From a virus (lineage: Duplodnaviria > Heunggongvirae > Uroviricota > Caudoviricetes), in IMG/VR virus record IMGVR_UViG_3300012346_000380, positions 160,001 to 224,000 of that record: a stretch of DNA of 64,000 nucleotides; one strand, given 5' to 3'. This document shows, in pieces, positions 17,148-40,277 of the stretch. The notes under the pieces are model-generated. The model was not told the origin of the DNA, did no database searches, and was given only the letters and a program-made list of their open reading frames with translations. Within the stretch, counting starts at the first letter, position 1; every line of letters begins with the position of its first letter. Both the position numbers and the translations under genes were made by a program.

Positions 17148-17696
17148 TTACTTTGCGTCGATTGTTAAAAGTAATTGTGCTCTGATCTCTATATTGTTAT
17201 CTAGAACATCTGTGTCGAATTCACCTAAGACTGCTGTCTCTTGTTTAGTGATAATGGCTGAGTTTTGCATGCCTTCTAGTTTTCTTGTGTATTTACTAGC
17301 GTCTGTATCATCTGCGAAACCAACGTTGATTACTAAATCTGCTGGGTATCTTACTAGTAATTCTGCTCTGCCTGGTTCGTTAATACCATTTACTTCATCT
17401 TTGATCCATGGTTTGCCCGATAAAGTGGCCATAATATAAACTACTGACTCTTTGTCTTTGATTTGTTTTAAGACTTCTTGCTCTATGATTTTAGCTCCGT
17501 CTTTGTCCGCCCATTTAGACCAAACTTTGTTGATTTCTTCTAAGGTAGCTGCTTCGTCTCCTTCGTATTTGATACGTTCGATTTGTTTTTTAAATGCAAA
17601 TAAGACTTTACCTGCGATACCTTTGGCTCCATAAGAACCTGTCATTTGGTATACCTTTTCATTTACGAATTGTTCGAATAATTGAATATGTTTCAT
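17148..17696 (-). CDS. Leader-bearing protein (putative internal virion protein)
   Basis: N-terminus MKHIQLFEQFVNE. Confidence 0.7.
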   Translation of the reverse strand: MKHIQLFEQFVNEKVYQMTGSYGAKGIAGKVLFAFKKQIERIKYEGDEAATLEEINKVWSKWADKDGAKIIEQEVLKQIKDKESVVYIMATLSGKPWIKDEVNGINEPGRAELLVRYPADLVINVGFADDTDASKYTRKLEGMQNSAIITKQETAVLGEFDTDVLDNNIEIRAQLLLTIDAK

Positions 17697-17712
17697 ATAT
17701 GTTAGTTTTTAT

Positions 17713-18054
17713 TTAATATTCAAATGGTGGTGTTTGATAACTTGATTGCTTAACTGCATACCAAGTTTTATCTACTCTAAAATACCAGAAAGTATCTCCT
17801 TCAATAATATAGTGATCGCCTTTGATTTTTACATCTTTGTAACCACCTCTTGTAAAGTTTTTAGTCACTGGAACGCCGTCATCAAACGTTTTATCAGTAG
17901 ATTGCGCTTTAAATGATTTACCATCAAATTTAGCTAAGTAAATATCTGCTTTCTTACCTTCTTCTTTTTCATCCTTTTGAAATTGCTCCATACCTTCTGG
18001 TAAATTAAGTGCGCTTTCATTTAAGAAATCTTCAAAAAGTTTAATATATTTCAT
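17713..18054 (-). CDS. Leader-bearing protein (putative internal virion protein)
   Basis: N-terminus MKYIKLFEDFLNE; late-type motif at 18079-18088. Confidence 0.7.
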   Translation of the reverse strand: MKYIKLFEDFLNESALNLPEGMEQFQKDEKEEGKKADIYLAKFDGKSFKAQSTDKTFDDGVPVTKNFTRGGYKDVKIKGDHYIIEGDTFWYFRVDKTWYAVKQSSYQTPPFEY

Positions 18055-18092
18055 AATTTAATTTGTTTTTACGTATGCTTTATATATTAAAA

Positions 18093-18118
18093 TAAAAAAG
18101 GACCATTTAGGTCCTTTT
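18093..18118 (-). terminator. Rho-independent terminator
   Basis: AAAAGGACC-ATTTA-GGTCCTTTT with A/T runs. Confidence 0.7.
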
Positions 18119-18141
18119 GATTTATATGTGTTTGTTTAGAT

Positions 18142-18351
18142 CTAAACAAAAAGAGCTTTAACTGCATACATACATGCAGTTTCAATATTTGTTTGAGCGA
18201 TTGAGATTTCTCTAGCATTTTTATCGTCTTTCATGATTTCTAATTTATCGATTAGATTTGCATGTTGTTCTTTTAGGTCTTCGATAATTGGGTTAGCCGA
18301 AGGGTTAAAGTTTCTTTGGACTCTTTTTTGTCCTAATGTTATATTTTCCAT
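18142..18351 (-). CDS. Acb2/Tad1-like helical-hairpin protein (candidate signalling-molecule sponge)
   Basis: C-terminal REISIAQTNIETACMYAVKA resembles the Acb2/Tad1 terminal helix pattern. Confidence 0.6.
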   Translation of the reverse strand: MENITLGQKRVQRNFNPSANPIIEDLKEQHANLIDKLEIMKDDKNAREISIAQTNIETACMYAVKALFV

Positions 18352-18363
18352 AGTTTAGTTTGT

Positions 18364-18789
18364 TTAGTCTTCGAAGACTTCTATTGTTTTTTGCTTCTCT
18401 GTTAAGTTTGACCATTTACCGACGAATTGTGTAGCTTTAACTACTCTATCATCAATCCAATGATAATTTCCACCTCGAGGTTTACCCATTAAAAGTCCAT
18501 GGTATATAAAACCATGTCTTTCCAACCAATCCATTGTGATTTTTCTATGTTCTTCAGTACGCGACGTGAAAAAGGTAATGATGTGTCCTTCTTTAGCCCA
18601 ACCGTTTAAGATTTGTCTTGCGTCTGGGTAAGGTAAAACCATTTTCATTCTTTCTGGCTCTTCATTAGGTACATCATCTGTGATGGTACCATCAATATCA
18701 ATTAAATAATTTCTAATACCTTCTGGTAATGCCGGTGACACTAATTGACCTTCATCTCCAAATTGAGATTGTAAATTTATTGTTTTCAT
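18364..18789 (-). CDS. HAD-family phosphatase
   Basis: DIDGT motif I, FTSR motif II, KP and WIDD motifs. Confidence 0.85.
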   Translation of the reverse strand: MKTINLQSQFGDEGQLVSPALPEGIRNYLIDIDGTITDDVPNEEPERMKMVLPYPDARQILNGWAKEGHIITFFTSRTEEHRKITMDWLERHGFIYHGLLMGKPRGGNYHWIDDRVVKATQFVGKWSNLTEKQKTIEVFED

Positions 18790-18805
18790 TTATATAGTGA
18801 TTAGA

Positions 18806-19348
18806 TTAATGCTTTGCTAAGTGAGTTTTGATGTCCACATCCAAATCCTTTGCTAATTGTTTGATCAATTGAATATTTCGTGTATCATCATCAAAGAATG
18901 AAATATCGGTGTAGCCTTGTTCTATGAACCATTGCATGGCTTGTTGTTTTTTACTAGCTATATCACCTTTGAGTTTTCTTTTAGGATCATTTACGCACCA
19001 AATCAATTCTGGATGGATATGAAAACCAACATGATCCTTCATCCAATCATAAATCATTTTTTCATCATCTCGAGCAGTGATAATACCGATTGCATTTCCA
19101 GCTTTGTAGTTTTTGGCTAAAATGTCTAAGTATTTCTTAATCATTTTACCAGCTTTCATAACTTCTAAAGATTTGAAATCATCAAAGTCTAAAACTTGAC
19201 CTTTTTTACTCTCATATTTGTTGAATTCTTCGGGTGTTAATTCGTAACAAGTTCCTGTTTTTTGATCGCAAACACGAATTTTTGCATCTGTAATGACAAG
19301 TGTATCATCGAGATCAAATATCAAAATCTTTTCGGTTGAAAATGCCAT
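18806..19348 (-). CDS. HAD-family phosphatase
   Basis: DLDDT, ITAR, K and FFDDD motifs. Confidence 0.8.
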   Translation of the reverse strand: MAFSTEKILIFDLDDTLVITDAKIRVCDQKTGTCYELTPEEFNKYESKKGQVLDFDDFKSLEVMKAGKMIKKYLDILAKNYKAGNAIGIITARDDEKMIYDWMKDHVGFHIHPELIWCVNDPKRKLKGDIASKKQQAMQWFIEQGYTDISFFDDDTRNIQLIKQLAKDLDVDIKTHLAKH

Positions 19349-19541
19349 AATCTACATATTTTTAACTATCTATTATATCAAAGTAATGATAATAGTTTCA
19401 TAAAATAGATCTATAAATGGTATTTGAACCTTTGATTATATCCAGTCACATCCCAATTTTATCAGGATGCGACCAAAAATATTTTACAATAGCAAACATG
19501 GTTTGAAGCTATAAATCAAGGGTGAAGATCTGGTGTGTTGC

Positions 19542-20372
19542 TTATTTTGTGATAATAAACATTTGTTGGTCGAAAACGTCTTGATCAAATAGAGCCATTC
19601 TCTTATTATCACCTAAATGGTGAAAGTCTTGTCTGTATTTTAAACCTAATTCAGTCCAATTTGGTGGATAATTAAAATAAGATTTTTCAGATTCATGTAG
19701 TTCATTAGTCAATGACGCTATTCGATTGCCAGTATTTGTACAAAGTTGAGTTAATAAAGATTGCTCAACAAATGTCATTTCAGCAGTAGAATGCTTTTTG
19801 TGTCTAAATGAATATGTTAAAACTTCTTCCCATAATCTAGATACATTTGTAAATTCCTTTCTCATTTCTTCATCACCTAAATAAATAAAAGACATATTCA
19901 TTACGTGATCGTTGTTCCATAGAATATCGAACATTTGAATTAGACCGCTGTATGGCATTTTGTTAGGATCAGCGTACATCTTATTAGATTCAGCTTGAGT
20001 ACCTGCAAATATAAAATGTTTTAATTCAGAAAGTTTTAATTTATCAGTTAAGACTAAAAAATCAATGTCCATCATGATAAATGGTGCTTTGATCTCATTC
20101 ATCACTTTTAATTTTGATGCCGTCCAAAAGATAGTTCTGTTAATATCATCTTGTTTTGACAAGACTTCAGTATTAACTACATGCCATTCTTTTAACAAAT
20201 CAACGCTTTCCAAATAGGATTTAGTGGTTGCATCGCAATAAATGTGAGTCAATGTATCAGGATAAAACTTCTTCCAATTTTTGATTGAGTTCTCCATGCA
20301 CTTTAATTCAAGCGGACTCAAATAAAATGGATCTAGTTTCTTAGAATTTTCTAAAACCCAATATACATTCAT
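19542..20372 (-). CDS. Putative GT-A glycosyltransferase-like protein
   Basis: FWTASKL...APFIMMDID (DxD), NMS, FVEQ, HHLG. Confidence 0.5.
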   Translation of the reverse strand: MNVYWVLENSKKLDPFYLSPLELKCMENSIKNWKKFYPDTLTHIYCDATTKSYLESVDLLKEWHVVNTEVLSKQDDINRTIFWTASKLKVMNEIKAPFIMMDIDFLVLTDKLKLSELKHFIFAGTQAESNKMYADPNKMPYSGLIQMFDILWNNDHVMNMSFIYLGDEEMRKEFTNVSRLWEEVLTYSFRHKKHSTAEMTFVEQSLLTQLCTNTGNRIASLTNELHESEKSYFNYPPNWTELGLKYRQDFHHLGDNKRMALFDQDVFDQQMFIITK

Positions 20373-21340
20373 TACTCTTCATCTTTTTTTACAAAAAGTC
20401 TAAAATTATCTTGAATTTGTTTGATAAATGTAACCATATCATCGTTAATTCTATATGTGCCAACTAGTGGATGAATTAACAACAATTTACCAGGCTCGTT
20501 ATTCTCAACAATACTCATTTCAAAAGGAACGCTAATTACAACTTCATATCCTAAATCATCAGTCACGTCTAAAGTTGTTAAACCGTGCATAGCAGTCCAT
20601 CCTAACCAAACTGTTTCATCACAATATTGTTTAGCGTATGTGTTTATTAATGCGTGTTTATAATATTTAGCATCTTCGAAGAATTTAGTTTTATAAATGA
20701 ATATGCAACTTAAAGACCATTGTGTATTTACCAGCCAATCTTTTACATATTCAGAATCTACTGATAAAGAATCAGCCATGAAATCAATATACTCGTCTTG
20801 TGGTATAGAAGTACATAAATTATCTCTTCTTCCAAAGAAAACTGAAGCCGAATTGTTTTCAACGTTGATAGCAATAGGTCTATCAGATTTTGCAGTATGT
20901 GTTAACACATTTTTGTAAAAATCTATTTTGGTATCACTATAGAAAAACATATCACCATCTACTACTGAAACTACTTCATATTTTTTCAACATTGGATTAG
21001 TAGTAATCATGTATTTAACAGCAAATTGCTTCTGAACTTTGATTATCTGTTCTTTCGCTATCAAGTTTCTAAATAAATGAATAGCAAAATCATAACGCTC
21101 TTCGTCTACAAATAAGTAAATATCAGCCATTTCTAGAACGTCTGTATACATTATTTGACTACACAATGAATGATATATGTATGGTAAATACCACTCGGTT
21201 GACCAAGTTTGATAAACCACTGCAATTTTTTTATCACCTGTGTTTGTGTAAAACTTGCCTTCACCTAAGTCAGGCCAATGTTCAAAACTTATTTTACTAG
21301 ATACGTAAAACTTAGGATCATCTGGTATTATTCTTTCCAT
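20372..21340 (-). CDS. Putative GT-A glycosyltransferase-like protein
   Basis: VVDGDMFF DxD motif, CDE and LIHP in GT-A-like positions. Confidence 0.4.
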   Translation of the reverse strand: MERIIPDDPKFYVSSKISFEHWPDLGEGKFYTNTGDKKIAVVYQTWSTEWYLPYIYHSLCSQIMYTDVLEMADIYLFVDEERYDFAIHLFRNLIAKEQIIKVQKQFAVKYMITTNPMLKKYEVVSVVDGDMFFYSDTKIDFYKNVLTHTAKSDRPIAINVENNSASVFFGRRDNLCTSIPQDEYIDFMADSLSVDSEYVKDWLVNTQWSLSCIFIYKTKFFEDAKYYKHALINTYAKQYCDETVWLGWTAMHGLTTLDVTDDLGYEVVISVPFEMSIVENNEPGKLLLIHPLVGTYRINDDMVTFIKQIQDNFRLFVKKDEE

Positions 21341-21404
21341 TATTAAAAATTATTTAAAATTTATATGTGTATATTTGTTAATGTTTCAGAATATTTATCT
21401 AAAT

Positions 21405-21433
21405 AAAAAAGGTCTCCTTTTGAGAGACCTTTT
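21405..21433 (-). terminator. Rho-independent terminator
   Basis: AAAAGGTCTC-CTTTTGA-GAGACCTTTT. Confidence 0.7.
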
Positions 21434-21452
21434 AAAATTCTATATTAATTTT

Positions 21453-22178
21453 TTACAATGATGGAATGATAGTTTTAGTTGATGTATTAGCATCAGTATA
21501 AACTAATTGTATTTGACCACTACCACCCATGGTTACACTAAATTGTGAATTTAAAGTATTTGCTGGTATAGTAATATAAGATCCAGAATTGAATGTTTGA
21601 CCACTAGCTGTAATACTATTACTCATTGAAATTGGGCTTCCTGATAAACCAGTTGAAGATGCCGAACCTGAATTTGTACCAGAATTATAATACGATGAAC
21701 TACCTCTAAGCCAGATATATTTGTCATAAGCTGTTGGATTATCGATGATAATTACCGCTGTACCAGGTGAAGATATTGGGAATGAAGATCCTGAGATCCA
21801 AGTATATCCAAATGTTGTTCCAACCGGAACTTCAAATGTTGTATGATAATCGTTAGAAGATAACCAAGCCATTGCGTTTGTTGTATTAACAAAAGATTGA
21901 CCGGCTAATTGTGCAACTAAATCTATAAAAGATTGATCTGTTAAATCCACAGATCTTACAAAGTTTAAAGTTGAATATGTACCATCTGGTGTAATTCTAC
22001 TTGCACCTTCAAAGCTTATGATATGTCCAGTTTCTTCTGGTCCATTATACCATTTTAATTCTGTTGATGCAAAATCAAATCCATTTACATTAGATGGTAT
22101 TACTGCTGATATACTTCCAGATTTTTTAGTTCCTGAAATTTCTGAACCAGTATGTTTTGCGAAAGGTCTTGTTGCCAT
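21453..22178 (-). CDS. Ser/Thr/Gly-rich putative virion structural protein
   Basis: Beta-rich composition, late-type motif at 22201-22210, near the fibre gene. Confidence 0.55.
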   Translation of the reverse strand: MATRPFAKHTGSEISGTKKSGSISAVIPSNVNGFDFASTELKWYNGPEETGHIISFEGASRITPDGTYSTLNFVRSVDLTDQSFIDLVAQLAGQSFVNTTNAMAWLSSNDYHTTFEVPVGTTFGYTWISGSSFPISSPGTAVIIIDNPTAYDKYIWLRGSSSYYNSGTNSGSASSTGLSGSPISMSNSITASGQTFNSGSYITIPANTLNSQFSVTMGGSGQIQLVYTDANTSTKTIIPSL

Positions 22179-22222
22179 TTTATTTAAGTATTTTTATATG
22201 TTATATATTTGCTAGTAAGCTA

Positions 22223-22465: not shown

Positions 22466-22501
22466 GTTTTAAACTATCGGGGTCCATATTATAGGTTATT
22501 T

Positions 22502-23122: not shown

Positions 23123-23128
23123 CGACTC

Positions 23129-26100
23129 TTATTTGTTTTTTAAGATTTCAATCTCAGCTTTTAATTCTTGTATAGCTTGAACCAAATAAACTGAAAGTCT
23201 AGCATAATCAACTGTTAAATACTCAGTATCATCGCCAACACCATTCATTTTTAAGATTTCACTTTTGTGAATTAAATGTGGGAATTGAGCTTGTATATCT
23301 TGAGCTATAAAACCAACATCGTGGCCTCTACCCATTTCTTTGATCCAATCAAATTCTACAGGCGTGATATTCATTATTTTATCAAGCGCGTAACCATCAA
23401 TTGGTGTTACATTTTCTTTTAATCTATTATCAGACGTTATACTTGAGAAACCTATAATATTTCCAGAAGCTTCGAATGCACCATTAGTATTCCAAGCAAA
23501 TTGTGTACCTACAAATCTTTTAACAGATATTGGAGTTTGACCAACCGTAGGTGAACCTAATTGAACTGTAGTTCCAGACACATATCCACCTTCGTTATAT
23601 CCAGTTAATCCACTGGCACCTTGAGCTCCTGTAGCGCCTTGAGCTCCTGTAGCGCCTTGAGCTCCTGTAGCACCTTGAGCTCCTGTTGCACCTTGAGCTC
23701 CTGTTGCACCTTGAGCACCTTGAACAGAAACACCTGAAGTACCGCTAGCGCCTTGAGCACCTGTAGCACCTTGCGCTCCCGTTGCACCTTGCGCTCCTTG
23801 AAGTCCAGAAGTTCCAGCTACACCTTGAGCACCATTTACACCTGATATACCTGAAGTTCCTGAAGTTCCTGAAGTACCATTTACGCCTTGAGCACCTGTA
23901 GCACCTTGTGCTCCATTCACACCGGAAGTTCCACTAGCACCTTGTGCTCCTGTAGCACCTTGAGCACCATTTACACCAGAAGTTCCAGCAGCTCCTTGAG
24001 CACCCGTGGCACCTTGAGCACCTGTTGCGCCTTGAGCACCTGTTGCGCCTTGAGCACCTTGTGCTCCATTAATACCTGAAGTTCCACTAGCTCCTTGAGC
24101 ACCTTGTGCTCCATTAACACCAGATATACCAGAAGTTCCGTTAGCACCTTGCGCTCCATTAACACCAGAAGATCCAGAAGTTCCGCTTGTTCCTGAAGAA
24201 CCATTAGTTCCTGAAGTTCCAGCAGTTCCACTCGAACCAGATGTTCCAGCAGTTCCACTTGAACCACTCGAACCAGAAGAACCAGAAGTTCCTGAAGTTC
24301 CACTAGAACCCGAAGCTCCTTGTGCTCCATTTATACCCGATATACCAGAAGTTCCTGAAGATCCAGACGTTCCACTTGAACCCGAAGTCCCTGCACTACC
24401 AGAAGTTCCGCTTGAACCAGAAGTTCCAGCAGTTCCACTTGAACCAGAAGTTCCTGAAGATCCAGATGTTCCACTTGAACCATTAACACCTTGTGCTCCC
24501 TGTGCACCTGTTGGACCTTCGGTAGCTCCTAATGATGAGATCACGTATGAATAATCAGAAATACCTTCAGTGTAAAATTTAATAGTTCTATTAGTGCTAT
24601 TGTCGTTAGTTGCATAAATTTGTACAAGAACTCTATCCGTTGGATCAACATAATGAGACGGTATGAATATATCTTGATACATGTCAACTGGAATTGTATC
24701 ATCAGTGTCCCACCCGATTAACGCCGGTGTTGTTGTTCCCCATACTGCAATCGGTGTTCCACTTGAATCTGTATGTGTTATTTTTAAATATATTTGAATA
24801 TCATGACCTACCGCTCCTTTAGTAAAGTGCATTTTAAATTGTTGAATTCCGCCGGGCACAACAGCAACGCCTAATCCAGATGGTGTAATAAATTGTGTGA
24901 CTAATACATCACTTTGAAGAGAAGTTAAATTTGTAGTTACTACTTGTTGTGCAGCAGCCGTCGGCATCGTTGCTAACTCGTTAAGATCATTTACTCCACC
25001 ACCATTATTAACGACAATAACAGATTCATTCATATAGAATATTTGACCTACACTAGATCCAGCTTCTCCTGTTGCACCTTGTGCTCCATTTACACCAGAA
25101 GATCCAGAAGTTCCAGATGATCCAGAAGAACCAGAAGTTCCATCTTGTCCTGCAGCACCTTGCGCTCCATTAATACCAGATATTCCCGATGTTCCACTTA
25201 ATCCTGAAGACCCTGATGTTCCATTTAAACCATCAACGCCTGAACTTCCATTTGAACCTGAAGTTCCGGCAGTTCCACTAGAACCATCTGTTCCTGCAGT
25301 TCCACTTGAACCTGAAGATCCAGAAGTTCCATCTTGTCCTGCAGCACCTTGTGCTCCATTAATACCAGATATTCCTGATGTTCCACTCGTTCCTGCTATT
25401 CCACTTGAACCTGAAGTTCCAGCTGTTCCACTAGAACCATCTGTTCCTGCAGTTCCACTTGAACCTGAAGTTCCATCAGTTCCACTTGAACCAGAAGTTC
25501 CTGAAGTTCCAGAAGTTCCAGCTGCACCTTGTGCTCCATTTATACCAGATATTCCCGATGTTCCAGAAGTTCCAGCTGCGCCTTGTGCTCCATCAATACC
25601 TGAAGTTCCAGTAGCTCCTTGAGCTCCGTTTATACCAGAAGTTCCCGCTGCACCTTGTGCTCCATCAATTCCGCTTGTTCCATTTTGACCAGCTGCACCT
25701 TGTGCTCCATCAATTCCGCTTGTTCCATCTTGACCTGCAGCACCTTGTGCTCCATCAACACCTATAGTTCCACTAATACCACTAGAACCTGAAGATCCAT
25801 CAGTACCTGAGGTTCCGTTAGTTAAACCAGAAGAACCGCTTGTTCCTGTAGTTCCACTTGTTCCAGCTGCACCTTGTGCACCTTGTAAACCAGGAGAACC
25901 TGCAAAACCTTGTGCTCCTCTAGCACCTGATGTTCCACTTGTTCCAGAAAGACCAATGCCACCTTGAGCACCTTGAGATCCTGTTGCACCTTGAGATCCT
26001 GTTGCACCTACTGCGCCTTGTGCTCCTTGAGCACCTCCACCTCCACCACCGCCAGTAGCTTCACTTAAATCCCAATAGTATTCTGTACCATTTACAGTTT

Positions 26101-26338
26101 GACGACTACTTAAAACAGGTGTTTTACCTAAATCAATATTAGGATCAATAATACCTTGATCTCCATGACCTAGAATTTCATAATTTTTAATAATCTCACC
26201 AGTTAAGGCTAAATTATAATTCATTTCTTCATGAGTCAATGCTCTACCTAATAATTCCTTAGATAATTGAATATATGAACCATTAGCACCTCTGTGCAAT
26301 CCATGTGAGAATGTATATTCGCTAATTTTTTTAGACAT
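23129..26338 (-). CDS. Collagen-like tail fibre with C-terminal intramolecular chaperone (peptidase S74)
   Basis: Two long G-X-Y tracts (GTS, GSS, GAQ, GAT) around a globular domain; C-terminal SDNRLKENV...GFIAQD...VDYARL..QAIQEL. Confidence 0.85.
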
Positions 26339-27417: not shown

Positions 27418-27753
27418 TTATTTATCTTGTCCTTCGGTAGAGTGACCGTAGTGTGCTAAGTATTCAGCTGGCGACATGCCATGTAAAGCAGCTTGTGCTA
27501 ATAAAATATCTGGATATGTTCCATTTAGGCGTCGTACACCTGTTGCAGTTTGTGACCAAGTTCCGTATTGTAAAACAGGATCTTGTTGTGTAAGTGGTAT
27601 AATGCTTCCTTCAGACTCAGCGCCTGTGCTTGTAGTTGGTACTTTACCAGCTCCTTGTATAGTTCCTACAACAATATTTGCCATTGAAGATGGATTGAAA
27701 GGAGTTTGATACTCAGCGATAAAGTCTTCTAAGTTTTTAACGTGTGTTTTCAT
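27418..27753 (-). CDS. Leader-bearing protein (putative internal virion protein)
   Basis: N-terminus MKTHVKNLEDFIAE; late-type motif at 27757-27765. Confidence 0.65.
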   Translation of the reverse strand: MKTHVKNLEDFIAEYQTPFNPSSMANIVVGTIQGAGKVPTTSTGAESEGSIIPLTQQDPVLQYGTWSQTATGVRRLNGTYPDILLAQAALHGMSPAEYLAHYGHSTEGQDK

Positions 27754-27768
27754 GTTCTATATATCTGA

Positions 27769-28323: not shown

Positions 28324-28395
28324 AATTGTTTATTTTAATTACAGTACAAATATACTAAAAAAAGCCCAAACTAAAAAATTTGGGCTTAATTATTT

Positions 28396-28945: not shown

Positions 28946-29698
28946 TTATTTTAAATTTTTAATAACTGCATCGTCTGCTTTAATTTCACCCATTGGTATT
29001 TGTAAATTTTTAACCAACATTTGTACGAAATCAACAGCTGCATCTTTTTCTTTAAATGAGAATACATCAGTCGACGGTCTTTTACCGTATTTGATAAACA
29101 TGTCATTGAAAAGTGCAATAGCATCTTTAGCATGTCTAAGGCTTACTGTAACCTCAAAAGCTTCATTAACTAATGATTCTTTAACACCTACTTCTTTTAA
29201 AGATTTAACTTGTTTACCTTTCTGCTCACCACTATCCGCAGCAAACCATAATAAACCGTCTTTGATTAATCTTTTGTAAAGTTCAGCTTTAACAATTTCA
29301 AAATTGATAGTGTCAGATGAATTCTCCCAAGTTTCTTCTACATAGTCTGGATCAATCCAACCAAATCCTGATTTAATGTTTTTAACCATTGTTTTGTAAT
29401 CAGTTTCAAATTGTTTTACGGCAGCTTCAGTAACAACAGCTTCATATACAGTACCTTGCACCTCTTCAGCCTTATTAAATTTCTTAGCAGATTTTTTAAT
29501 CTCATTTAATTTTTTAATAATACTATCAAGTACACCAGGATCTACGTCATTACCTGCCTTTGCGCTATCATAAAAATTCATTAGATTTTTAGATACTAGA
29601 TATAAATCATTTCCAATCACATCAGATGGTAATCTGTAAAATGATTCTTGTATAGATTCTTCACCATTGAATTCTTCGAATAGTTTAATTTTCTTCAT
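28946..29698 (-). CDS. Leader-bearing multi-segment protein (putative internal virion polyprotein)
   Basis: MKKIKLFEEF leader; internal EAVVTEA and ESLVNEA sites. Confidence 0.65.
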   Translation of the reverse strand: MKKIKLFEEFNGEESIQESFYRLPSDVIGNDLYLVSKNLMNFYDSAKAGNDVDPGVLDSIIKKLNEIKKSAKKFNKAEEVQGTVYEAVVTEAAVKQFETDYKTMVKNIKSGFGWIDPDYVEETWENSSDTINFEIVKAELYKRLIKDGLLWFAADSGEQKGKQVKSLKEVGVKESLVNEAFEVTVSLRHAKDAIALFNDMFIKYGKRPSTDVFSFKEKDAAVDFVQMLVKNLQIPMGEIKADDAVIKNLK

Positions 29699-29749
29699 GT
29701 TTTAGTAAATCTTTTTCTTTTATTTAAATAAATATAAACTATATATCTC

Positions 29750-33119: not shown

Positions 33120-33195
33120 AAAAGATTTAGATATTTTTTGTAGAGGATTAGAGGTTCTACTGTTTATATATTAATCTTTTTTAGAAAGTTTCAAA

Positions 33196-33627
33196 TTATT
33201 GTTGCGTTTCTTTGATTTTATCATCAATAAAATCAGTTAAATCTTTTACTGAACCTCTAAAAGCTCTAATATCTACCATTCTTTGATCTTCGCTTGGATT
33301 TCCAACGAATGTGTCTGAGTCTTTTGCTTCTAAAATTACATCATTATCAAATTTAATAGTTGGAGAAGGTGAGAATTGAGTTCCACCGTCTTGAGCTTCT
33401 AAACCATAAACGTCTTTTAACGTTTTAATAACTTTAGATTTATAAGACTTGTCTTTTAAATGAAAGTAAGTAACACTGTCATTAGGTTGATCAAGTATGC
33501 CTTTAACATAGTGTGATAATTCTTTTGCAATATATTCAGCAGCATCTCCTGCCACATTTCCATTGTATTTTGATTCTTTAATTTCCAATTCATCAACGAA
33601 TTGTTCAAATAATTTAATGTGTTCCAT
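33196..33627 (-). CDS. Leader-bearing protein
   Basis: N-terminus MEHIKLFEQFVDE. Confidence 0.7.
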   Translation of the reverse strand: MEHIKLFEQFVDELEIKESKYNGNVAGDAAEYIAKELSHYVKGILDQPNDSVTYFHLKDKSYKSKVIKTLKDVYGLEAQDGGTQFSPSPTIKFDNDVILEAKDSDTFVGNPSEDQRMVDIRAFRGSVKDLTDFIDDKIKETQQ

Positions 33628-33636
33628 TGTTTTCTA

Positions 33637-33945
33637 TTATGATTTAAATTCTTTTAATAAAGAATCTGCTAAATTAGATGCGTTTACTCTGAAGACAATT
33701 CCTGCAGCATGATGCGATTTATCCCATTCCATACAGTCTCTGAAAAAATCCATGTTGTTAAACACTGAATCGATCCATCCAGCTGATTCTTCTTTGGTAT
33801 ATGCGTCTAAAGTTTTACTATCAGGTATAAAGCTGATATAAGAACCTTTAGAGTCTTGGCTTCCCATTATTGTAAATGTAAATCCATTAGATGAAAATTT
33901 ACTAGCTTCATTAATGAATGATTCAAAGTTTGTTGTGTGTTTCAT
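33637..33945 (-). CDS. Leader-bearing protein
   Basis: N-terminus MKHTTNFESFINE. Confidence 0.7.
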   Translation of the reverse strand: MKHTTNFESFINEASKFSSNGFTFTIMGSQDSKGSYISFIPDSKTLDAYTKEESAGWIDSVFNNMDFFRDCMEWDKSHHAAGIVFRVNASNLADSLLKEFKS

Positions 33946-34232
33946 TATTTCTTTTTAAGTTCTTTTCCAAATTCTGTTAAAGCGCCATTATCATCCATAA
34001 CTCGAAAGTGTTCTCTAGAATTACCTTTAGTTAATTCAACGTGTAATCCTGGATTCATACCTCCAAGATCTTTTGGTGCCCATAATCTTACAACTGTCCA
34101 AGTTCCAGACTCTGATTTTAAAGTAACTTTATCCCATGTTGAGATTCCAGTTTCTTCTGTAAATTTTTTGGTTAATTTATCTCCAATTTGAGCTTCATTA
34201 ACAAATTCTTCGTATAGTTTTATGTGTTTCAT
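33945..34232 (-). CDS. Leader-bearing protein
   Basis: N-terminus MKHIKLYEEFVNE. Confidence 0.7.
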   Translation of the reverse strand: MKHIKLYEEFVNEAQIGDKLTKKFTEETGISTWDKVTLKSESGTWTVVRLWAPKDLGGMNPGLHVELTKGNSREHFRVMDDNGALTEFGKELKKK

Positions 34233-34238
34233 ATCTTA

Positions 34239-34787
34239 TTAATTTTTTGGCCACATCATCATTGTTCCTGGATCATTCCAAGAAAACCACCAACCTTTTT
34301 TCTCTACAGCATCAACTACATTCTTAAGTACGCCATTTTTATATTTAGCACTTTTGTTGTAGTAATCAAATATTTTGTTACCGCTTAATTCTTCTCCATT
34401 ATCTCCAGCAATCCAAATACCGTCAGTATCTCCACGTAAAAATTCTTCAGAAGTTCTAACATGTTTGATTTTGTATTTAGTTTCCATCATATCCATGATT
34501 TCTTCTCTACTAGCATCTTTAGCTTCATTAAGAGATTCTCCTAATGTTATATTGCTTTTTAATGTTTTTACAAAACATGAATCAATATTTCCAATTACAG
34601 TTGACGTATAATCATCAAGAATATCATAAAACACTTTTGCTTTCGTGAATGATACTTTAACTACAGATCCCCATCTTTCGTCATCACCGGGCGCAGTTAT
34701 AAACGATACAGGTTCTCCAATTTCAAATTGTGCTGGAAAGTTTACTTCTTCGTTTATGTATTGTTCAAATAATTTTACCTTTTTCAT
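34239..34787 (-). CDS. Leader-bearing two-segment protein
   Basis: MKKVKLFEQYINE; internal ESLNEA. Confidence 0.7.
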   Translation of the reverse strand: MKKVKLFEQYINEEVNFPAQFEIGEPVSFITAPGDDERWGSVVKVSFTKAKVFYDILDDYTSTVIGNIDSCFVKTLKSNITLGESLNEAKDASREEIMDMMETKYKIKHVRTSEEFLRGDTDGIWIAGDNGEELSGNKIFDYYNKSAKYKNGVLKNVVDAVEKKGWWFSWNDPGTMMMWPKN

Positions 34788-34789
34788 AA

Positions 34790-35371
34790 TTAAAAATCTT
34801 TACGTGAAGCTACGCTTTTTTTGTTTTTATCAAAGAATGCACCTAAGATACCAATTTGTGCAACACTAAAAGTATGTTCTCCACCATTAACTTTATCTTT
34901 AATAAAGATCATTGGTTGAATTTCAAATTGTTTGTTTGGTGTAAATTTTGCATTTAAGATAGCTTTACTAGCGCTTAATAATTCTTCCATATCTTCAGAT
35001 GTAAAAGGAATATCAAAATAGTAGATTAATCCTGTTGAAGAATCTAATGATGGTTTTTCGTCAGCCTCATTAACAATCGATTCACCAATAGCTTCTTGTG
35101 CAATCATTGCTTGAATAACATCCGCTGAAATCCATCCGGCTGCTTTAAAGAAATCATGAGCTAAATTCATCACTTTCTTTTCATCTCCGTTGGTAACTTC
35201 ATTGTCTTTACCATCTTCGTTGTTAAGATTCCATTCTTCAACCTCGTCTTCAACAGCTCTTGCTACTTTAGACGCAGATGTTATTTTTGTAGATTTTTCA
35301 TGGTAATCTGCCCAATATTTAACGTTTACTGACTCATTAATAAAGTCTTCAAATCCTTTTACGTTTTTCAT
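34790..35371 (-). CDS. Leader-bearing two-segment protein
   Basis: MKNVKGFEDFINE; internal ESIVNEA. Confidence 0.7.
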   Translation of the reverse strand: MKNVKGFEDFINESVNVKYWADYHEKSTKITSASKVARAVEDEVEEWNLNNEDGKDNEVTNGDEKKVMNLAHDFFKAAGWISADVIQAMIAQEAIGESIVNEADEKPSLDSSTGLIYYFDIPFTSEDMEELLSASKAILNAKFTPNKQFEIQPMIFIKDKVNGGEHTFSVAQIGILGAFFDKNKKSVASRKDF

Positions 35372-35673
35372 TATGATATGTATGTGTTTAGTTCGTATTT
35401 ATCACCCATTCCATATATTGAAATTCCAAGGGCTTTCTTTTGTTCTTTACCATCTTTAAAAAGAGTGATAGTAAATCTGTTTGTAAAACCATCACCTGGT
35501 TTTCTAGGACCCATGCCAATTTTAGTGGCAGTTTCTTCTTTGTCATATTCATATCCTTGTGATTCAGCATATTCTAATGCAGCCTCAACAGCCGATGTAT
35601 AACTTCTGTGGTAAATTTGGTAACTTGATTTCTTTTCAGTTACAAATTGTTCAAATAATAAAGTATGTTTCAT
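35371..35673 (-). CDS. Leader-bearing protein
   Basis: N-terminus MKHTLLFEQFVTE. Confidence 0.7.
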   Translation of the reverse strand: MKHTLLFEQFVTEKKSSYQIYHRSYTSAVEAALEYAESQGYEYDKEETATKIGMGPRKPGDGFTNRFTITLFKDGKEQKKALGISIYGMGDKYELNTYIS

Positions 35674-35674
35674 A

Positions 35675-36097
35675 TTATTTACCTAGTGCTTTTTTAACTT
35701 CTTTAACAAATTTAACTGCTCTATCAGCTGCATCTTTCATAGATTTTGCTGTAGCTTTTCTAAATTTGATTTTTAAACGAGTTTCATAAGATACTTGTTT
35801 TCCTGGTTCGTATAAAGACTGTGTGAAAACTTCCATTTTACCATCTTTGTAAATTGCCATTCTAAAATAATTAGAATTTTCTACATAACCATGAGACCAC
35901 TCAGTTTTTGGTTCAAATGAAACCAAAAGCATAATTGTATCATTACCAAAAACACCTTTACTTAAAGAGATATAACCTGGGTTTTCTTTTTCTAAAGCAT
36001 CTTTTAATATAGCAGATGCTTGTACAATATCTGTAGTTCCATCATCAAAGATTAAGGCTTCATTTACGTATTGTTCAAATAATTTTACTTTTTGCAT
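35675..36097 (-). CDS. Leader-bearing protein
   Basis: N-terminus MQKVKLFEQYVNE; late-type motif at 36119-36127. Confidence 0.7.
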   Translation of the reverse strand: MQKVKLFEQYVNEALIFDDGTTDIVQASAILKDALEKENPGYISLSKGVFGNDTIMLLVSFEPKTEWSHGYVENSNYFRMAIYKDGKMEVFTQSLYEPGKQVSYETRLKIKFRKATAKSMKDAADRAVKFVKEVKKALGK

Positions 36098-36125
36098 GAT
36101 TTAAGTTTATTTTATAGTCTATATA

Positions 36126-36578
36126 TTATTTTATTATTAAGTAATTTAAAACTTGTTCCCAGTTTTCAAAATTAGGTTGACCAAACTGAATCCATTGACC
36201 TTTGAATTCTGCAGCACCATTATTAGGTCTATCATCAATAAGATAATCACCCATTAAAAGATCCTTTCTGTGAGAAAGTATAAGTCTTTTGTGTGCTAAT
36301 TTACCCATGTGTTTTTGAACCCAACGTCTTTTAGAACTCCAAGACTCTGCATTTGACCATGGCGCTGTGCTTAAAAAGTAAACTTCGTACTGTTCCATAA
36401 GTATTTTAACAGCATCTAGAGCTCCTTCGATAGGCTCTGGATTCTCAAACAACTCTTTATCTACTGATGTTAATCTTCCTAAGTGTCTAACAGCATCTGG
36501 TCCGTGTCTTTCGATTGCGTGAGCTTCTAAATCAACCATTACTCCGTCTAAATCGATATAAACTATTTTCTTGTCCAT
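36126..36578 (-). CDS. 5'(3')-deoxyribonucleotidase (NT5C, HAD family)
   Basis: IDLDGV, LSTAPW, K..WV, HRKDLLMGDYLIDD; start moved to MDKKIV. Confidence 0.85.
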   Translation of the reverse strand: MDKKIVYIDLDGVMVDLEAHAIERHGPDAVRHLGRLTSVDKELFENPEPIEGALDAVKILMEQYEVYFLSTAPWSNAESWSSKRRWVQKHMGKLAHKRLILSHRKDLLMGDYLIDDRPNNGAAEFKGQWIQFGQPNFENWEQVLNYLIIK

Positions 36579-36666
36579 CTTCTTGTTTTTAATTATAATG
36601 TAAATATACAAAAAAAAGCCCAAATAAAAAAATATTTGAGCATTTATTTTAAAAATTTAATGATTT

Positions 36667-37386
36667 TTATGAATTGGCCTTAATCCATTCTTTACCAATA
36701 CGGTTTTGTAATGGTTTATTAAGTAATTTATTAATAGCGCCTGCCATTTTATCAAAGTGTTCAGTTCCAGAGACTGAATTGTCAACAATGATTAAGTTAT
36801 CTCCACCAAAAATAGTTTGGAAGTGACCTATATTGTTTTGTACATTCTGCCAAATTTCTTTAACCATTTCTTCAGGTAAAGATCTTGATCTAGCTGCATT
36901 TCTTTGTAATGCAACTTCTAATGAAGTATTAACAAAAATCATATAACAATCATAACCATAAGCTTCAATTGCTCCTTTTTTAGCTGCAATTTTCTTATAA
37001 TCATCGCCTGTACCATCAATGATCATACCTAATCTACCTTCTAAGTATAATTTTTGCTTTAAAGTAGTAACTCTTTTAGCTTTACCTCTTGGCGAATCTT
37101 CACCAGATGTTAATTCTGTGAATTTCTTAGGGTCCATAGTAGCTAAATCCTTTGGATCAACTCCCATGTTCTTTAATTGTACTTCAAATGCTTGATCTGA
37201 ATTAATAACTTTAAGACCGTTTCTATATGAAATGCTTTGAATACCATTCTCAGGTACACCAAACAATTCTTCAGCAGCTCTTGATTTACCAGAACCTGGT
37301 CCTCCAGCCATGAAAAATGCCTTTAAGATATTTTTATCGTGCACACCTTCATTAATAAACTCTTCAAATAATTTAACTAGCTTCAT
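36667..37386 (-). CDS. Zeta-toxin/AAA_33-like P-loop kinase with leader
   Basis: MKLVKLFEEFINE leader; AGGPGSGKS, INSD, IIDGT, RNAARSR lid. Confidence 0.75.
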   Translation of the reverse strand: MKLVKLFEEFINEGVHDKNILKAFFMAGGPGSGKSRAAEELFGVPENGIQSISYRNGLKVINSDQAFEVQLKNMGVDPKDLATMDPKKFTELTSGEDSPRGKAKRVTTLKQKLYLEGRLGMIIDGTGDDYKKIAAKKGAIEAYGYDCYMIFVNTSLEVALQRNAARSRSLPEEMVKEIWQNVQNNIGHFQTIFGGDNLIIVDNSVSGTEHFDKMAGAINKLLNKPLQNRIGKEWIKANS

Positions 37387-37940
37387 TTTAATTTACCGTA
37401 TATTCTTTTTGTAATTCTTTTACCAGCTTTTGATAAAAATCTTGTGTAATAGCCATTTTCAGTGAATTCTGGCTTTTTATCTAATCCAACGACATCTTCA
37501 ATCATTTCTTTGTCTGTAATAACGGGAGCTTTGGCTTGACTCAATAACTCTTCCATTCTTAAAGAAGCTTCTATAAACCACCCTTTAGTATTAACTAACT
37601 GTAAAAGTTTTTTAACAATATCGGATTTAGCTTCTTTTTTACCATTAGTACCTAACAAAGCTATTTTATTGCCCCATTTAGTAGGCTTGTATATGATAAA
37701 AGCATCTGCTTGATGATCTGAGTCTACATCTTTTAAGGCAGTTGCTTTGTATTTTGCTTGCATTTCTTCCCAATCATCAGCTGATAAATCCATACCAGCA
37801 TCTAAATATGTTTTAGTGTACATAGCCCAAATTGATTCCATGCCTTCTTTGTCAATCTTCTTAAGATCCATGTCGACCCACTTATTAGAAGGTATTTCGA
37901 ATTCATTTAAGAATTGTTCAAATAATTTAACTTTCTTCAT
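37383..37940 (-). CDS. Leader-bearing protein
   Basis: N-terminus MKKVKLFEQFLNE. Confidence 0.7.
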   Translation of the reverse strand: MKKVKLFEQFLNEFEIPSNKWVDMDLKKIDKEGMESIWAMYTKTYLDAGMDLSADDWEEMQAKYKATALKDVDSDHQADAFIIYKPTKWGNKIALLGTNGKKEAKSDIVKKLLQLVNTKGWFIEASLRMEELLSQAKAPVITDKEMIEDVVGLDKKPEFTENGYYTRFLSKAGKRITKRIYGKLK

Positions 37941-37941
37941 A

Positions 37942-38292
37942 TTATTGAGGTAATCTTACCATTGTATTTCTTGTTTCACTCTTGTCTGTGTTTTTTACAA
38001 AACCATGATCTTTGTAAAACTTTTCTAATCTAGATGTTGAAGTGGCTCCAAAATCTTTAGAAGGTGTTAAGTATATTTTTAAACCTTTAGAATCAGCGTA
38101 AGTGTTAATTTGTTTCATGATTTCTGAACCAATACCTTCACCTCTTTTATCTTTTGGAATAACTATTCTTGACAACTCTAAAAATTTACCATTGTCATAA
38201 AGATCTAAGTCAATGCCATATTTGTCTTCTAAGTCTCTTAAAACAAATTGACCTTCATTGATAAATTCTTCGTATAATTTAATGTATTGCAT
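37942..38292 (-). CDS. GNAT acetyltransferase with leader
   Basis: MQYIKLYEEFINE; acetyl-CoA motif RGEGIGS and FYKDHGF. Confidence 0.8.
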   Translation of the reverse strand: MQYIKLYEEFINEGQFVLRDLEDKYGIDLDLYDNGKFLELSRIVIPKDKRGEGIGSEIMKQINTYADSKGLKIYLTPSKDFGATSTSRLEKFYKDHGFVKNTDKSETRNTMVRLPQ

Positions 38293-38293
38293 A

Positions 38294-38662
38294 TTACTCT
38301 ACCTTTCCATCATTACCATCCATTGCATCATGAACAGCGTTTAAGTTTTCTAAAGAAACAGTTAGTTGAGAATACATCCAAGATTCTAATTGTTCACCTT
38401 TAGTCATTCTGTCCTTGATCATATTTGCATAGTCTGCAATTCTTTCAAGTTGACCTAAAGTCATTTCATTTAATTCAGCCAAAGTATCTCTACCTTCAGC
38501 TTCAGCCAATGATTCCTGTGCTGCTTCCCATCCTTCTTCATCTGGATAATCTTCATCACCTGGTTTTGCCGGAGCTTCACCTCTTTTTCTTTTTGCATGA
38601 ATATTAGCCCAAAGACCTTTCTTTTCATTTGCAAAATCATCAAAATTAGTTACGTGTTTCAT
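38294..38662 (-). CDS. Leader-bearing two-segment protein
   Basis: MKHVTNFDDFANE; internal ESLAEA and ELNE. Confidence 0.65.
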   Translation of the reverse strand: MKHVTNFDDFANEKKGLWANIHAKRKRGEAPAKPGDEDYPDEEGWEAAQESLAEAEGRDTLAELNEMTLGQLERIADYANMIKDRMTKGEQLESWMYSQLTVSLENLNAVHDAMDGNDGKVE

Positions 38663-39201
38663 TATAGATTAATCTTTGTTTTTGTACCATCTGGTTGGGA
38701 ATAGACTATATATTTAGGTTTAAGCTCCTTTTTAGTATCGTCTAGCATTTCAATGTATTTCTTACCTAAACCAGATTTTAAATAAGCAACTGTCATGTGT
38801 GGGTGATAGTCTGGATAATCTGTTGTGTGTGGTAATTTACTAAGTTCAGCATTACAATCGTGTAAGCTTGGACCTTCTACATCGTATTTCAACACATCAA
38901 ACTTTTCATTTTCAAAAAGAGATGCATTTGTAATCGTACAATTGCCAAAAACAAAGTTTTTAGCTATATTTTCAATCACTTCAAGTTTTACATCATCATG
39001 TAAGCCATAAAGTAATGTGCAATGCGGTTCAGTTTCTAGGCCAAATGTAGCATCTTTAGGATCTATAAAGACATCTTCTTCGTCTATTTGTTTATGTAAG
39101 TTTTCCATTTCAGGAAAATCAAAGTACAACATAGCACAACCATAATCATACACTTTTTTCTTTTCAGTCACGAATTCTTCGAATAATTTTATATGTTTCA
39201 T
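38662..39201 (-). CDS. 2H phosphoesterase (T4 57B/Acb1-like) with leader
   Basis: MKHIKLFEEFVTE; two HxT motifs, EPHCTLLYG and YHPHMTVAY. Confidence 0.75.
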   Translation of the reverse strand: MKHIKLFEEFVTEKKKVYDYGCAMLYFDFPEMENLHKQIDEEDVFIDPKDATFGLETEPHCTLLYGLHDDVKLEVIENIAKNFVFGNCTITNASLFENEKFDVLKYDVEGPSLHDCNAELSKLPHTTDYPDYHPHMTVAYLKSGLGKKYIEMLDDTKKELKPKYIVYSQPDGTKTKINL

Positions 39202-39213
39202 CTTTTAAATTTA

Positions 39214-39513
39214 TTATGCACCAAAATCTAAGTCAAGTGTATCATCCTTTTCATCATCATAATCTCCGGTTAAATCAACATCTTCTAAATCTATACCTTC
39301 AACTTTAATCTTCGGTCTAAAATGACCATCTCCGTCAAAATATGCTTTAAAGCTTCTACCAGAACCTACAGCACCGCACCAATGCATAAAAGCAAACATT
39401 TTTAAAAAATCATCTGCCGTTGATTGGTCAATATTAGAAATAGTTACATTTAAGGTAACTGTTCCGTCTTCCGCTTCTGTTAAGAAGTTTTCAAATAGTT
39501 TAATGTGTTTCAT
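39214..39513 (-). CDS. Leader-bearing protein
   Basis: N-terminus MKHIKLFENFLTE. Confidence 0.7.
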   Translation of the reverse strand: MKHIKLFENFLTEAEDGTVTLNVTISNIDQSTADDFLKMFAFMHWCGAVGSGRSFKAYFDGDGHFRPKIKVEGIDLEDVDLTGDYDDEKDDTLDLDFGA

Positions 39514-40277
39514 TATTTCTTGTTTTCTTTTTTATCGTAATATTCCCAAACCTCATCTAATTGTTTAGGATCTGCTAACCAGCTTTCCCACCAGCCTCCA
39601 CCTTCTTCTTCAACTAAAGAACCATCTTTTAATTTACGATATTCTTTTTCTTTAACTGCAATTTTAAAAGTTTTTGGTGTAAATGGAAATGATTTAATAT
39701 AATGCATACAACCAATTTGTTCTTCGCTGCCCTCAGTTATACTAACATGACCTGTAAAACCATAATCTTTTCCTTCAGGAATCCATACGATTGAATCTAA
39801 GTAATATGGTTGACCTTCTTTACCTTCTTTGAAAACCGAACTAAGTCTCATATTTTGAAAAGTTCCAGTGCCTTCTTCAGCGTCTTCGTATATTGAACAA
39901 TCTGACCATTCTTCGTCTGTTCCCATGATTCCTTCTCCAAGTGGCTCCTGCGCTAATAATTTCTGTAACACTTGAACAATAACTGCACTCGTAAATGGAG
40001 CTGAGCCACCGCTTTGACCAGAATCAGCAAATTTCTTTACTAATGCCATTACTTCAGGCACAAACTCTTTAATAATTGGAGTCCCACCTTCACCTTTACC
40101 TTCAGCATTTTTCATCATAAGATCCAATTCAAATTGAGCCTTATCGACTAATCCTTCATTGATAGAATCAACAGAGATCATCTTAACACCTTCGTGTAAG
40201 AATTTAATTAGCTGAAATTTAACTTTGTTTTCGATTGATTCTGCTAAGAATTCTTCGAATAATTTAACTGTTTTCAT
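39513..40277 (-). CDS. Leader-bearing protein
   Basis: Start moved to MKTVKLFEEFLAE; internal DSINEG. Confidence 0.7.
   Translation of the reverse strand: MKTVKLFEEFLAESIENKVKFQLIKFLHEGVKMISVDSINEGLVDKAQFELDLMMKNAEGKGEGGTPIIKEFVPEVMALVKKFADSGQSGGSAPFTSAVIVQVLQKLLAQEPLGEGIMGTDEEWSDCSIYEDAEEGTGTFQNMRLSSVFKEGKEGQPYYLDSIVWIPEGKDYGFTGHVSITEGSEEQIGCMHYIKSFPFTPKTFKIAVKEKEYRKLKDGSLVEEEGGGWWESWLADPKQLDEVWEYYDKKENKK

Follow-up and report, generated by a model that had tools for sequence, protein, structure and literature searches.

A leader resembling the T4 capsid-targeting sequence begins 25 proteins of an uncultivated T4-like phage and is probably a prohead-targeting tag

Introduction

Why should 18 proteins with unrelated bodies begin with the same short peptide? 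The question is raised by a stretch of 64,000 nucleotides (nt), hereafter the window, which comprises bases 160001-224000 of the 256,444-bp IMG/VR phage genome IMGVR_UViG_3300012346_000380. An earlier reading of the window made from its letters alone (the sequence-only reading) had counted about 18 open reading frames (ORFs) with a common N-terminal leader, and had seen in this leader a portable packaging tag for effectors injected with the DNA. Mullaney and Black reportedly described in 1996 the capsid-targeting sequence (CTS) that T4 has on its internal proteins IPI, IPII and IPIII. The T4 sequence to which the leader had been likened could be confirmed in the T4 record (NC_000866), where IPII and IPIII begin MKTYQEFIAE; IPI begins MKTFKEFTST.

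Results

All 18 ORFs are present, lie on the minus strand and begin with the leader, a stretch of 13 residues with the consensus M-K-x-(I/V)-K-L-(F/Y)-E-x-(F/Y)-(I/V/L)-(N/T/A)-E; a check of all window ORFs revealed no leader beyond these. We scored the genome with a matrix trained on IMG/VR leaders only, which makes it independent of this genome. Twenty-five of 331 genes reach 16-40 bits at the N-terminus (18 in the window and 7 outside it), the next best gene scores 0.0 bits and the best of 66,258 internal positions 10.6 bits. The leader is always found at the extreme N-terminus. The earlier count therefore holds for the window, but the leader is not specific to it: the genome total is 25, and the leader is clade-wide, on at least 143 cargo families. 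Fourteen leader ORFs lie within 33196-40277, where the sole interruption is a leaderless NT5C gene, as expected of the near-contiguous array that had been described. The claim that the bodies are unrelated is likewise borne out, since BLASTP of all pairs of 24 leader-stripped bodies gave no match below E 0.009 (this comparison left out the 25th leader gene, genome 122080-122889, which was found later). The conserved leader residues are encoded by mixed synonymous codons (TTC/TTT, TTA/CTA/CTT, GAA/GAG, ATT/ATA/ATC), and therefore selection acts on the peptide and not on a DNA repeat. Outside the window, one leader gene abuts the large terminase gene and another is located between the portal and protease genes. 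Searches of the full-text literature for the leader motif returned noise only, and 12 kb of the array had no Megablast match among cultured phages.

A further protein of 426 amino acids (aa), encoded outside the window at genome 86205-87485, begins MKTLLNYTEFLIE/K (here and below, a slash marks the end of a leader or leader-like motif). It scores 0 bits with the clade matrix, resembles the T4-type CTS (MKTYQEFIAE) and may be a divergent 26th member.

The likeness to T4 extends to individual functional residues. Mutagenesis of the T4 CTS has shown that targeting operates mainly via residues 4 and 7 and processing via residues 8 and 10, and that Asp at position 10 blocks processing while targeting is kept (PMC9026906). 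These four positions align with the four best-conserved columns of the leader, which in 314 unique leaders are occupied by F/Y (97%), F (96%), I/V/L (94%) and Glu (100%). The leader thus has aromatics at the IPIII targeting positions 4 and 7, and it ends in (L/I)-x-Glu, as a sequence motif that of gp21 processing. Moreover, a gp21-type (S77) protease and scaffold core are encoded by the same phage, and the leader is separable, being carried by unrelated bodies. Conservation ends directly past Glu13, with A, S or G as the next residue in 54% of leaders. An AlphaFold2 (AF2) model of the 38662-39201 protein has a per-residue confidence (pLDDT) of about 50 for residues 1-20 and of 84-94 elsewhere, and therefore the leader is predicted to be a free extension outside the fold. 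The leader of 27418..27753, which had been singled out as near the T4 sequence, is of all leaders the closest to the IPII/IPIII CTS; its gene adjoins collagen-like fibre genes and belongs to the same late-box gene cluster.

The S77 protease is encoded outside the window (genome 51569-53383, minus strand; L001:100-1914), where it adjoins the gp23 and gp20 homologues. Protease and coiled-coil scaffold form one 604-aa polypeptide, with the S77 domain (PF03420, 46 bits) in its N-terminal part. The protein collection contains 3,659 relatives of this fusion, and R164, N166 and E167 (R-V-N-E) at the protease-scaffold junction are invariant; C-terminal self-cleavage is known in related prohead proteases (PMC5694885). 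The scaffold part of the fusion also contains seven (Y/H/S)(I/V/L)AE repeats. Between the portal and protease genes, this genome and 18 of 20 relatives encode a leader-bearing acidic protein of 112-134 aa, some versions of which (MKIIKTFEEFTSS...) come near T4 IPI.

The motif that ends the leader, (I/L/V)NE followed by A, S or G, recurs in other places, among them the protease-scaffold junction described above. The capsid protein has the conserved N-terminus MA(N/Q)LINE/A, in which INE is a candidate for a conserved cleavage site. Inside leader proteins the motif occurs at 34 sites where 8.5 are expected, an enrichment of about 4-fold, and some of these sites copy the second half of the leader (e.g. 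SEFVNE/S and ESLVNE/A). We found no enrichment in the proteome beyond the leader and head proteins. An equation of the capsid MAQLINE/A with the T4 gp23 cleavage site LTE/AEI was considered and rejected: in BLASTP the former aligns with the very N-terminal end of gp23, and the counterpart of the T4 site is a region that is free of the motif.

The G+C content of the genome is 32%, terminal repeats are present, and 309 of its 331 called genes are on the minus strand. It encodes homologues of T4 gp23, gp20, gp17, gp18, gp2, gp4, gp43, gp44, gp46, gp47 and UvsW. By capsid protein the nearest phage is LR756500 (an uncultured 462-kb phage, 52%), with Lak phages, Tenacibaculum phage pT24 and Sphingomonas phage PAU at 33-38%. 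A Shine-Dalgarno-like 4-mer is found upstream of 5 of 331 genes, and 52% of the 20 nt before start codons are A, which we take to suggest a host of Bacteroidota type.

Searching IMG/VR with a degenerate DNA pattern for the leader, we recovered more than 119 stretches, many with 2-11 leader ORFs, and at least about 357 ORFs altogether; all clade counts are lower bounds. Among the matches listed, all 45 leader-bearing contigs of at least 60 kb are rated 21-87% complete, and therefore the genomes should measure roughly 250-300 kb. The protease-scaffold fusion is present in 29 of these 45, including every contig of at least 130 kb. The 313 unique leader proteins among the matches listed fall into at least 143 body clusters, 96 of them singletons. 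As judged from these contigs, the leader is a feature of one clade of roughly 250-300 kb T4-like phages. LR756500 has a leader version of its own, MKY/FI(K/L)EYEEF(L/I/V)xE, with which at least 12 of its ORFs (L127-L138) begin. Each lineage has one version on all of its cargo: MKTYQEFIAE in T4, MKYI(K/L)EYEEFxxE in LR756500 and MKHIKLFEQFxNE in this clade. Such lineage-specific versions would fit one shared receptor per phage.

Comparison with relatives shows bodies both with and without the leader. At L103:3481-3852, a leader is followed by a domain 74% identical to a leaderless, MSK-starting protein of the present genome, and the alignment starts exactly past the leader. Tad3-like sequences of cultured phages match the Tad3-like leader protein only from residue 39 or 100 on. 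The content of the array also differs between close relatives. Where the flanking genes are 85-97% identical, the relative's array has an extra leader gene and a gene for an HNH endonuclease. There is no counterpart of 34790..35371 in relative L078, and of 34239..34787 the first ~105 residues are common to L078, with the remainder replaced past the internal site. A mosaic gene in a close relative has only its last 44 residues in common with 33196-33627, joined to a different N-terminal part. HNH-type endonuclease genes, with the start MKHKHHI(I/V)PKHMGGS, lie in the leader arrays at L078:5326-5997 and L103:3855-4382 and are absent from the window; the endonuclease is a possible driver of cassette exchange.

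What follows the leader is seldom recognisable. Pfam assigned no family to 14 of the 18 window leader proteins, and PHROGs none to 13 of the 19 leader proteins scanned. Among representatives of the clade's cargo, the few recognised by Pfam are Tad3, NUDIX, zeta-like kinase, Acb1/2H, HD, nucleotidyltransferase, ATP-grasp and GNAT, and one leader protein encoded outside the window is an R2K-type ATP-grasp enzyme. No solved relative of the kinase body of 36667-37386 was found by sequence, and the ESM Atlas matches of 37383-37940 were confined to hypothetical viral clusters and a weak lead towards GNAT.

Tad3 is an inhibitor of type I Thoeris, and Acb1 is an anti-CBASS 2H phosphodiesterase. By alignment, the product of 39513-40277 is a clear Tad3 homologue, matching solved Tad3 (9b7d_B) at E 2.5e-35 over residues 45-249 and scoring 68 bits for PF25185, where the cut-off is 27. 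Just ahead of the part aligned with solved Tad3, residues 39-41 form an (I/L/V)-N-E site, whose N40 and E41 are invariant in 20 members of the family with 59-84% identity. Therefore, the homologue probably has a 41-residue propeptide.

The 38662-39201 protein is, as modelled, an Acb1-like 2H phosphoesterase. H60-C-T and H135-M-T are invariant in its family. Pfam places it just over the cut-off for Acb1 (28.3 bits vs 27) and at 30.1 vs 27 for 2_5_RNA_ligase2, whilst Foldseek retrieves Usb1, phage Acb1 (9q2g, 7t27) and a poxvirus cGAMP phosphodiesterase at E 2e-5 to 3e-4. Compared by sequence only, the protein matches solved Acb1 weakly (E 0.37). The modelled fold is compatible with Acb1 or with LigT/Usb1-type RNA end processing, and does not settle the substrate.

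The conserved box of 38294-38662 recurs in genes of T4-like cyanophages that lie between the terminase genes. About 70 T4-like cyanophage records contain hypothetical proteins that match the box KGLWANIHAKRKRGEAPAK at up to 89% identity. The gene with the box in Synechococcus phage S-CAM4 (L159:4001-4426) is found between the small and large terminase genes, and its product begins MRDYKELKELCE/A, with an L-x-E end.

The late-type ATATATA motif that had been noted in the window is real, with 57 copies of [ATG]ATATATA[AG] on the coding strand against 2 on the other. Copies precede the genes for tail tube, sheath, protease-scaffold, portal and capsid, and 8 leader genes (5 in the window) have one directly ahead of them. 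By this argument from motifs, late expression of most leader genes would fit. An early-type cassette of ~45 nt was also found, in which a G+C-capped hairpin (e.g. CCCAAATTTTTTAGTTTGGG) and a T-run are followed by GTATATTTACA(G/T)A; it lies about 20 nt ahead of the start codon. It precedes about 24 genes genome-wide, mostly small and with no assigned function, and within the array only the leaderless NT5C gene. The cassette looks like a unit of terminator and early promoter, and recalls the promoter-early stem-loops found in T4 on either side of mobile gene cassettes. A strict promoter of Bacteroidota type (TTG, 17-21 nt, TAnnTTTG) was tried and rejected, as it showed no enrichment on the coding strand (12 vs 25); the GTATATTTACA cassette, identified empirically, took its place.

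The features of the window are collected in Table 1. Two further observations concern genes without the leader. The product of 23129-26338 is a 1,069-aa protein in which collagen-like G-x-y repeats (G-T-S, G-A-Q) predominate; its middle part is globular, its C-terminal region looks like a fibre-chaperone domain, and it is probably a tail or head fibre. Two ORFs of 77 aa, 10967-11200 and 12012-12245, share an identical stretch of at least 14 residues around YFNDRIINEAYDVT; lying ~1 kb apart, this pair looks like a local gene duplication.

Table 1. Leader genes, the interrupting gene and promoter-like elements, in window coordinates. A slash marks the end of the leader or of an internal leader-like site.
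Feature	Coordinates	Strand	Evidence and remarks
Leader protein, 182 aa, MKHIQLFEQFVNE/K	17148..17696	-	39.9 bits; no known body family; leader-bearing relatives at at least 7 other IMG/VR loci
Leader protein, 113 aa, MKYIKLFEDFLNE/S	17713..18054	-	No known body family; late-type box 18080-18088, 25 nt upstream
Leader protein, 111 aa, MKTHVKNLEDFIAE/Y	27418..27753	-	16.3 bits; late-type box 27757-27765, 3 nt upstream
Leader protein, 250 aa, MKKIKLFEEFNGE/E	28946..29698	-	Internal leader-like site ESLVNE/A, residue 177; late-type box 29739-29747
Leader protein, 143 aa, MEHIKLFEQFVDE/L	33196..33627	-	Leader
Leader protein, 102 aa, MKHTTNFESFINE/A	33637..33945	-	23.9 bits
Leader protein, 95 aa, MKHIKLYEEFVNE/A	33945..34232	-	39.6 bits
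Leader protein, 182 aa, MKKVKLFEQYINE/E	34239..34787	-	Internal site GESLNE/A, residue 86
Leader protein, 193 aa, MKNVKGFEDFINE/S	34790..35371	-	Internal site GESIVNE/A, residue 100
Leader protein, 100 aa, MKHTLLFEQFVTE/K	35371..35673	-	Leader, matrix score
Leader protein, 140 aa, MQKVKLFEQYVNE/A	35675..36097	-	Late-type box 36119-36127, 21 nt upstream
NT5C-type 5'-nucleotidase, the only leaderless gene of the array	36126..36578	-	Pfam PF06941, E 1.3e-16
Early-type cassette before the NT5C gene: hairpin and T-run, then GTATATTTACA	36599..36642	-	Sequence motif
Leader protein, 239 aa, MKLVKLFEEFINE/G, P-loop kinase body	36667..37386	-	AAA_33 / zeta-toxin-like; PHROGs polynucleotide-kinase-like
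Leader protein, 185 aa, MKKVKLFEQFLNE/F	37383..37940	-	No known body family; weak GNAT lead; 98% identity in relative L078
Leader protein, 116 aa, MQYIKLYEEFINE/G, small GNAT acetyltransferase body	37942..38292	-	Pfam Acetyltransf_7, E 2.2e-7, 31.6 bits vs cut-off 27
Leader protein, 122 aa, MKHVTNFDDFANE/K, then conserved box KGLWANIHAKRKRGE	38294..38662	-	Late-type box 38706-38714
Leader protein, 179 aa, MKHIKLFEEFVTE/K, 2H phosphoesterase body as modelled (Acb1-like), two HxT motifs	38662..39201	-	Pfam, Foldseek
Leader protein, 99 aa, MKHIKLFENFLTE/A, acidic body	39214..39513	-	phrog_10928, no assigned function
Leader protein, 254 aa, MKTVKLFEEFLAE/S, then SINE/G at residues 38-41, then Tad3 domain	39513..40277	-	Pfam Tad3, E 8e-19
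Late-type promoter-like box [ATG]ATATATA[AG], example	18080..18088	-	Others: 27374, 27757, 29739, 33164, 36119, 38706
Early-type cassettes	36599-36642, 28345-28390		Boxes at 2586, 52840, 54321, 57054, 60072, 62440; about 16 more in genome

Discussion

We consider it likely that the leader works as a tag of CTS type, by which proteins are targeted to the prohead and processed, and that the protease-scaffold of this clade is its reader. In the mechanism that we propose, the aromatic N-terminal part of the leader (F/Y7, F10) would dock the new protein onto a prohead core made of the single S77 protease-scaffold polypeptide. Once the shell had closed, the protease would cut after the invariant Glu13 (P3 = I/V/L, P2 mostly N, P1' mostly A/S/K), and would also cut similar internal sites of some cargo. 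The freed bodies would then remain in the head and exit with the DNA at infection. As the leader is short and self-contained, any gene acquiring it would join the packaged, and probably injected, set, and we propose that the array varies in content between close relatives for this reason. The Tad3 homologue, the Acb1-like 2H phosphodiesterase, the GNAT and the kinase could thereby act on host defence or metabolism before phage gene expression. What the sequence-only reading had proposed stands as far as a portable T4-CTS-like tag is concerned, given the functional residues, the gp21-type protease, the head-module gene, bodies with and without the leader and the varying array; but docking, cleavage, retention in the head, injection with the DNA and the role of the cargo as effectors are steps that we infer from sequence.

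Several observations weigh against this proposal, for which the evidence is correlative as well as sequence-derived. T4 IPII and IPIII are described as basic (PMC9026906), and small, basic, DNA-associated cargo is not what we found here: the median isoelectric point (pI) of the bodies is 5.2, and 33% lie above pI 8 against a genome background of 26%. The closest cultured phages, pT24 and PAU, lack the leader. With regard to expression, early-type cassettes precede two leader genes elsewhere in the genome, no nearby promoter box was found for the three most upstream genes of the array, and a phmmer search with T4 gp55 found no late sigma factor of gp55 type. The Tad3-like leaders often have Glu13 replaced by D or another residue, and conservation of the Tad3-like protein is unusually high (524 relatives; 58-96% identity among the best 120). 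Moreover, NUDIX, HD, nucleotidyltransferase and ATP-grasp cargo could equally work in the cytoplasm late in infection, and only 2-4 of 25 bodies resemble known anti-defence proteins.

The leader might also be a propeptide for the head protease or prohead on bodies that are not injected effectors, these being assembly, core or DNA-condensing parts that are broken down or just remain in the head, or zymogen-like enzymes kept inactive until a late cleavage. The conserved acidic leader protein of the head module, between portal and protease, is what one would look for in such a case, the internal cleavage-like sites recall scaffold processing, more than 90% of bodies are without a known family, and the Tad3-like protein is conserved like a core gene. 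However, at least 143 unrelated cargo families and their turnover between close relatives are ill-suited to essential assembly parts, and for several bodies, being enzymes or homologues of immune inhibitors, a structural role is implausible. We therefore regard this explanation as unlikely. It is quite improbable, in our view, that the leader addresses a target other than the head, whether as a degron or adaptor-binding helix for ClpCP that times the removal of accessory proteins, or as a docking helix for some other partner. An exposed and disordered N-terminal peptide, as in the AF2 model, is degron-like, and the two leader genes with early-type cassettes could be accommodated. Such an address nevertheless leaves unexplained why the leader agrees position by position with the T4 CTS residues for targeting and cleavage, why the portal-protease gene carries it, and why the invariant Glu is followed by small residues, with this motif found again at the N-terminus of the capsid protein, where protease and scaffold join, and in cargo linkers.

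Lastly, the shared start could be a feature of the nucleic acid, either a translation initiation or a recombination element, with a peptide that has no function. Shine-Dalgarno sites precede only 5 of 331 genes, so A-rich starts could help initiation, and the mosaic genes speak for recombination in the array. Nonetheless, the codons are free to vary where the amino acids are fixed, conservation reaches codon 13 and stops at the invariant Glu, and leader-like peptides are also found inside proteins, and we hold this explanation to be very improbable. The CTS-type tag for prohead targeting and processing is the reading that we retain.

If the leader works as in T4, it marks the particle-borne proteins of an abundant group of uncultivated phages. 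Hundreds of unannotated genes would then become a list of candidate injected proteins and a place in which to seek new anti-defence functions. The Tad3- and Acb1-type inhibitors would be the first to be delivered ready-made and not expressed after entry, which would shift the expected timing against Thoeris and CBASS. Phage engineering, which uses the T4 CTS, could moreover gain a second and orthogonal system for packaging proteins in the leader and the protease-scaffold that matches it. As a more tentative hypothesis, about which we remain doubtful, this may be a globally distributed clade of T4-related jumbo phages whose injected proteome can be read from sequence, comprising at least 143 families of first-strike effectors, among them pre-loaded Tad3 inhibitors of Thoeris and an Acb1-like enzyme directed at cyclic-nucleotide signals, both active ahead of all phage transcription, and two-part cargo that is cut in the head.

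Comparison with known systems

In the phiKZ-like giants (SPN3US, phiKZ), dozens of proteins are loaded into the head and a gp21-related protease cuts after x-x-Glu (PMC5694885, PMC7411985). Their propeptides, unlike the leader, are ~100 residues or more with no single short shared tag, and their protease is S80 where that of the present clade is S77. Solved Tad3 (9b7d) differs from the homologue described here, which has the leader and a 41-residue N-terminal extension ending in the invariant INE. Acb1 (7t26, 7t27, 9q2g) has the 2H fold and HxT motifs in common with the 38662-39201 protein, and again it is the leader that sets the latter apart. In T4 itself, gene 57B (Acb1) adjoins ipI (NC_000866, L004:18592-19411), and its product has the N-terminus MMEFKDFST, which is like the IPI leader without the (I/L)-x-E end and may be a relic of a CTS.

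T4 also packages an enzyme, Alt, which is trimmed by gp21 at ITE-6 and LTE-619 and injected, and the T4 portal and protease genes have genes 67 and 68 between them (PMC5694885). In the T4 record, none of Alt, gp67 and gp68 has a CTS of the IP type at its start. The small acidic leader protein of this clade is like gp67/gp68 in position and unlike them in having the cargo-type leader.

The closest parallel is with the T-even internal proteins, which are diverse and defence-related and share only the CTS (PMC3012670; PMC9026906), IPI* being an injected anti-restriction protein (PMC9026906, PMC3012670). Common to both systems are a short N-terminal MK- tag with two aromatics three apart and an (I/L)-x-Glu end, carried by unrelated small proteins, and a gp21-type protease and scaffold core in the same phage. 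The tag has 10 residues in T4 and 13 here, with an extra I-K-L and mostly Asn at P2, and protease and scaffold are fused here. T4 has 3 tagged genes, whereas there are 25 in this genome and at least 143 cargo families in the clade. Enzymes and Tad3/Acb1 relatives are part of the cargo here, most of which is acidic or neutral and some of which has internal sites. The principle is therefore one established in T-even phages, and what is described here is an extension in scale, distance and cargo type rather than a new mechanism. Its additions are the scale, with 25 genes in each genome and 143 or more cargo families, the evolutionary distance from T4, a match to mutagenesis at the level of residues, internal processing-like sites and cargo of Tad3/Acb1 type.

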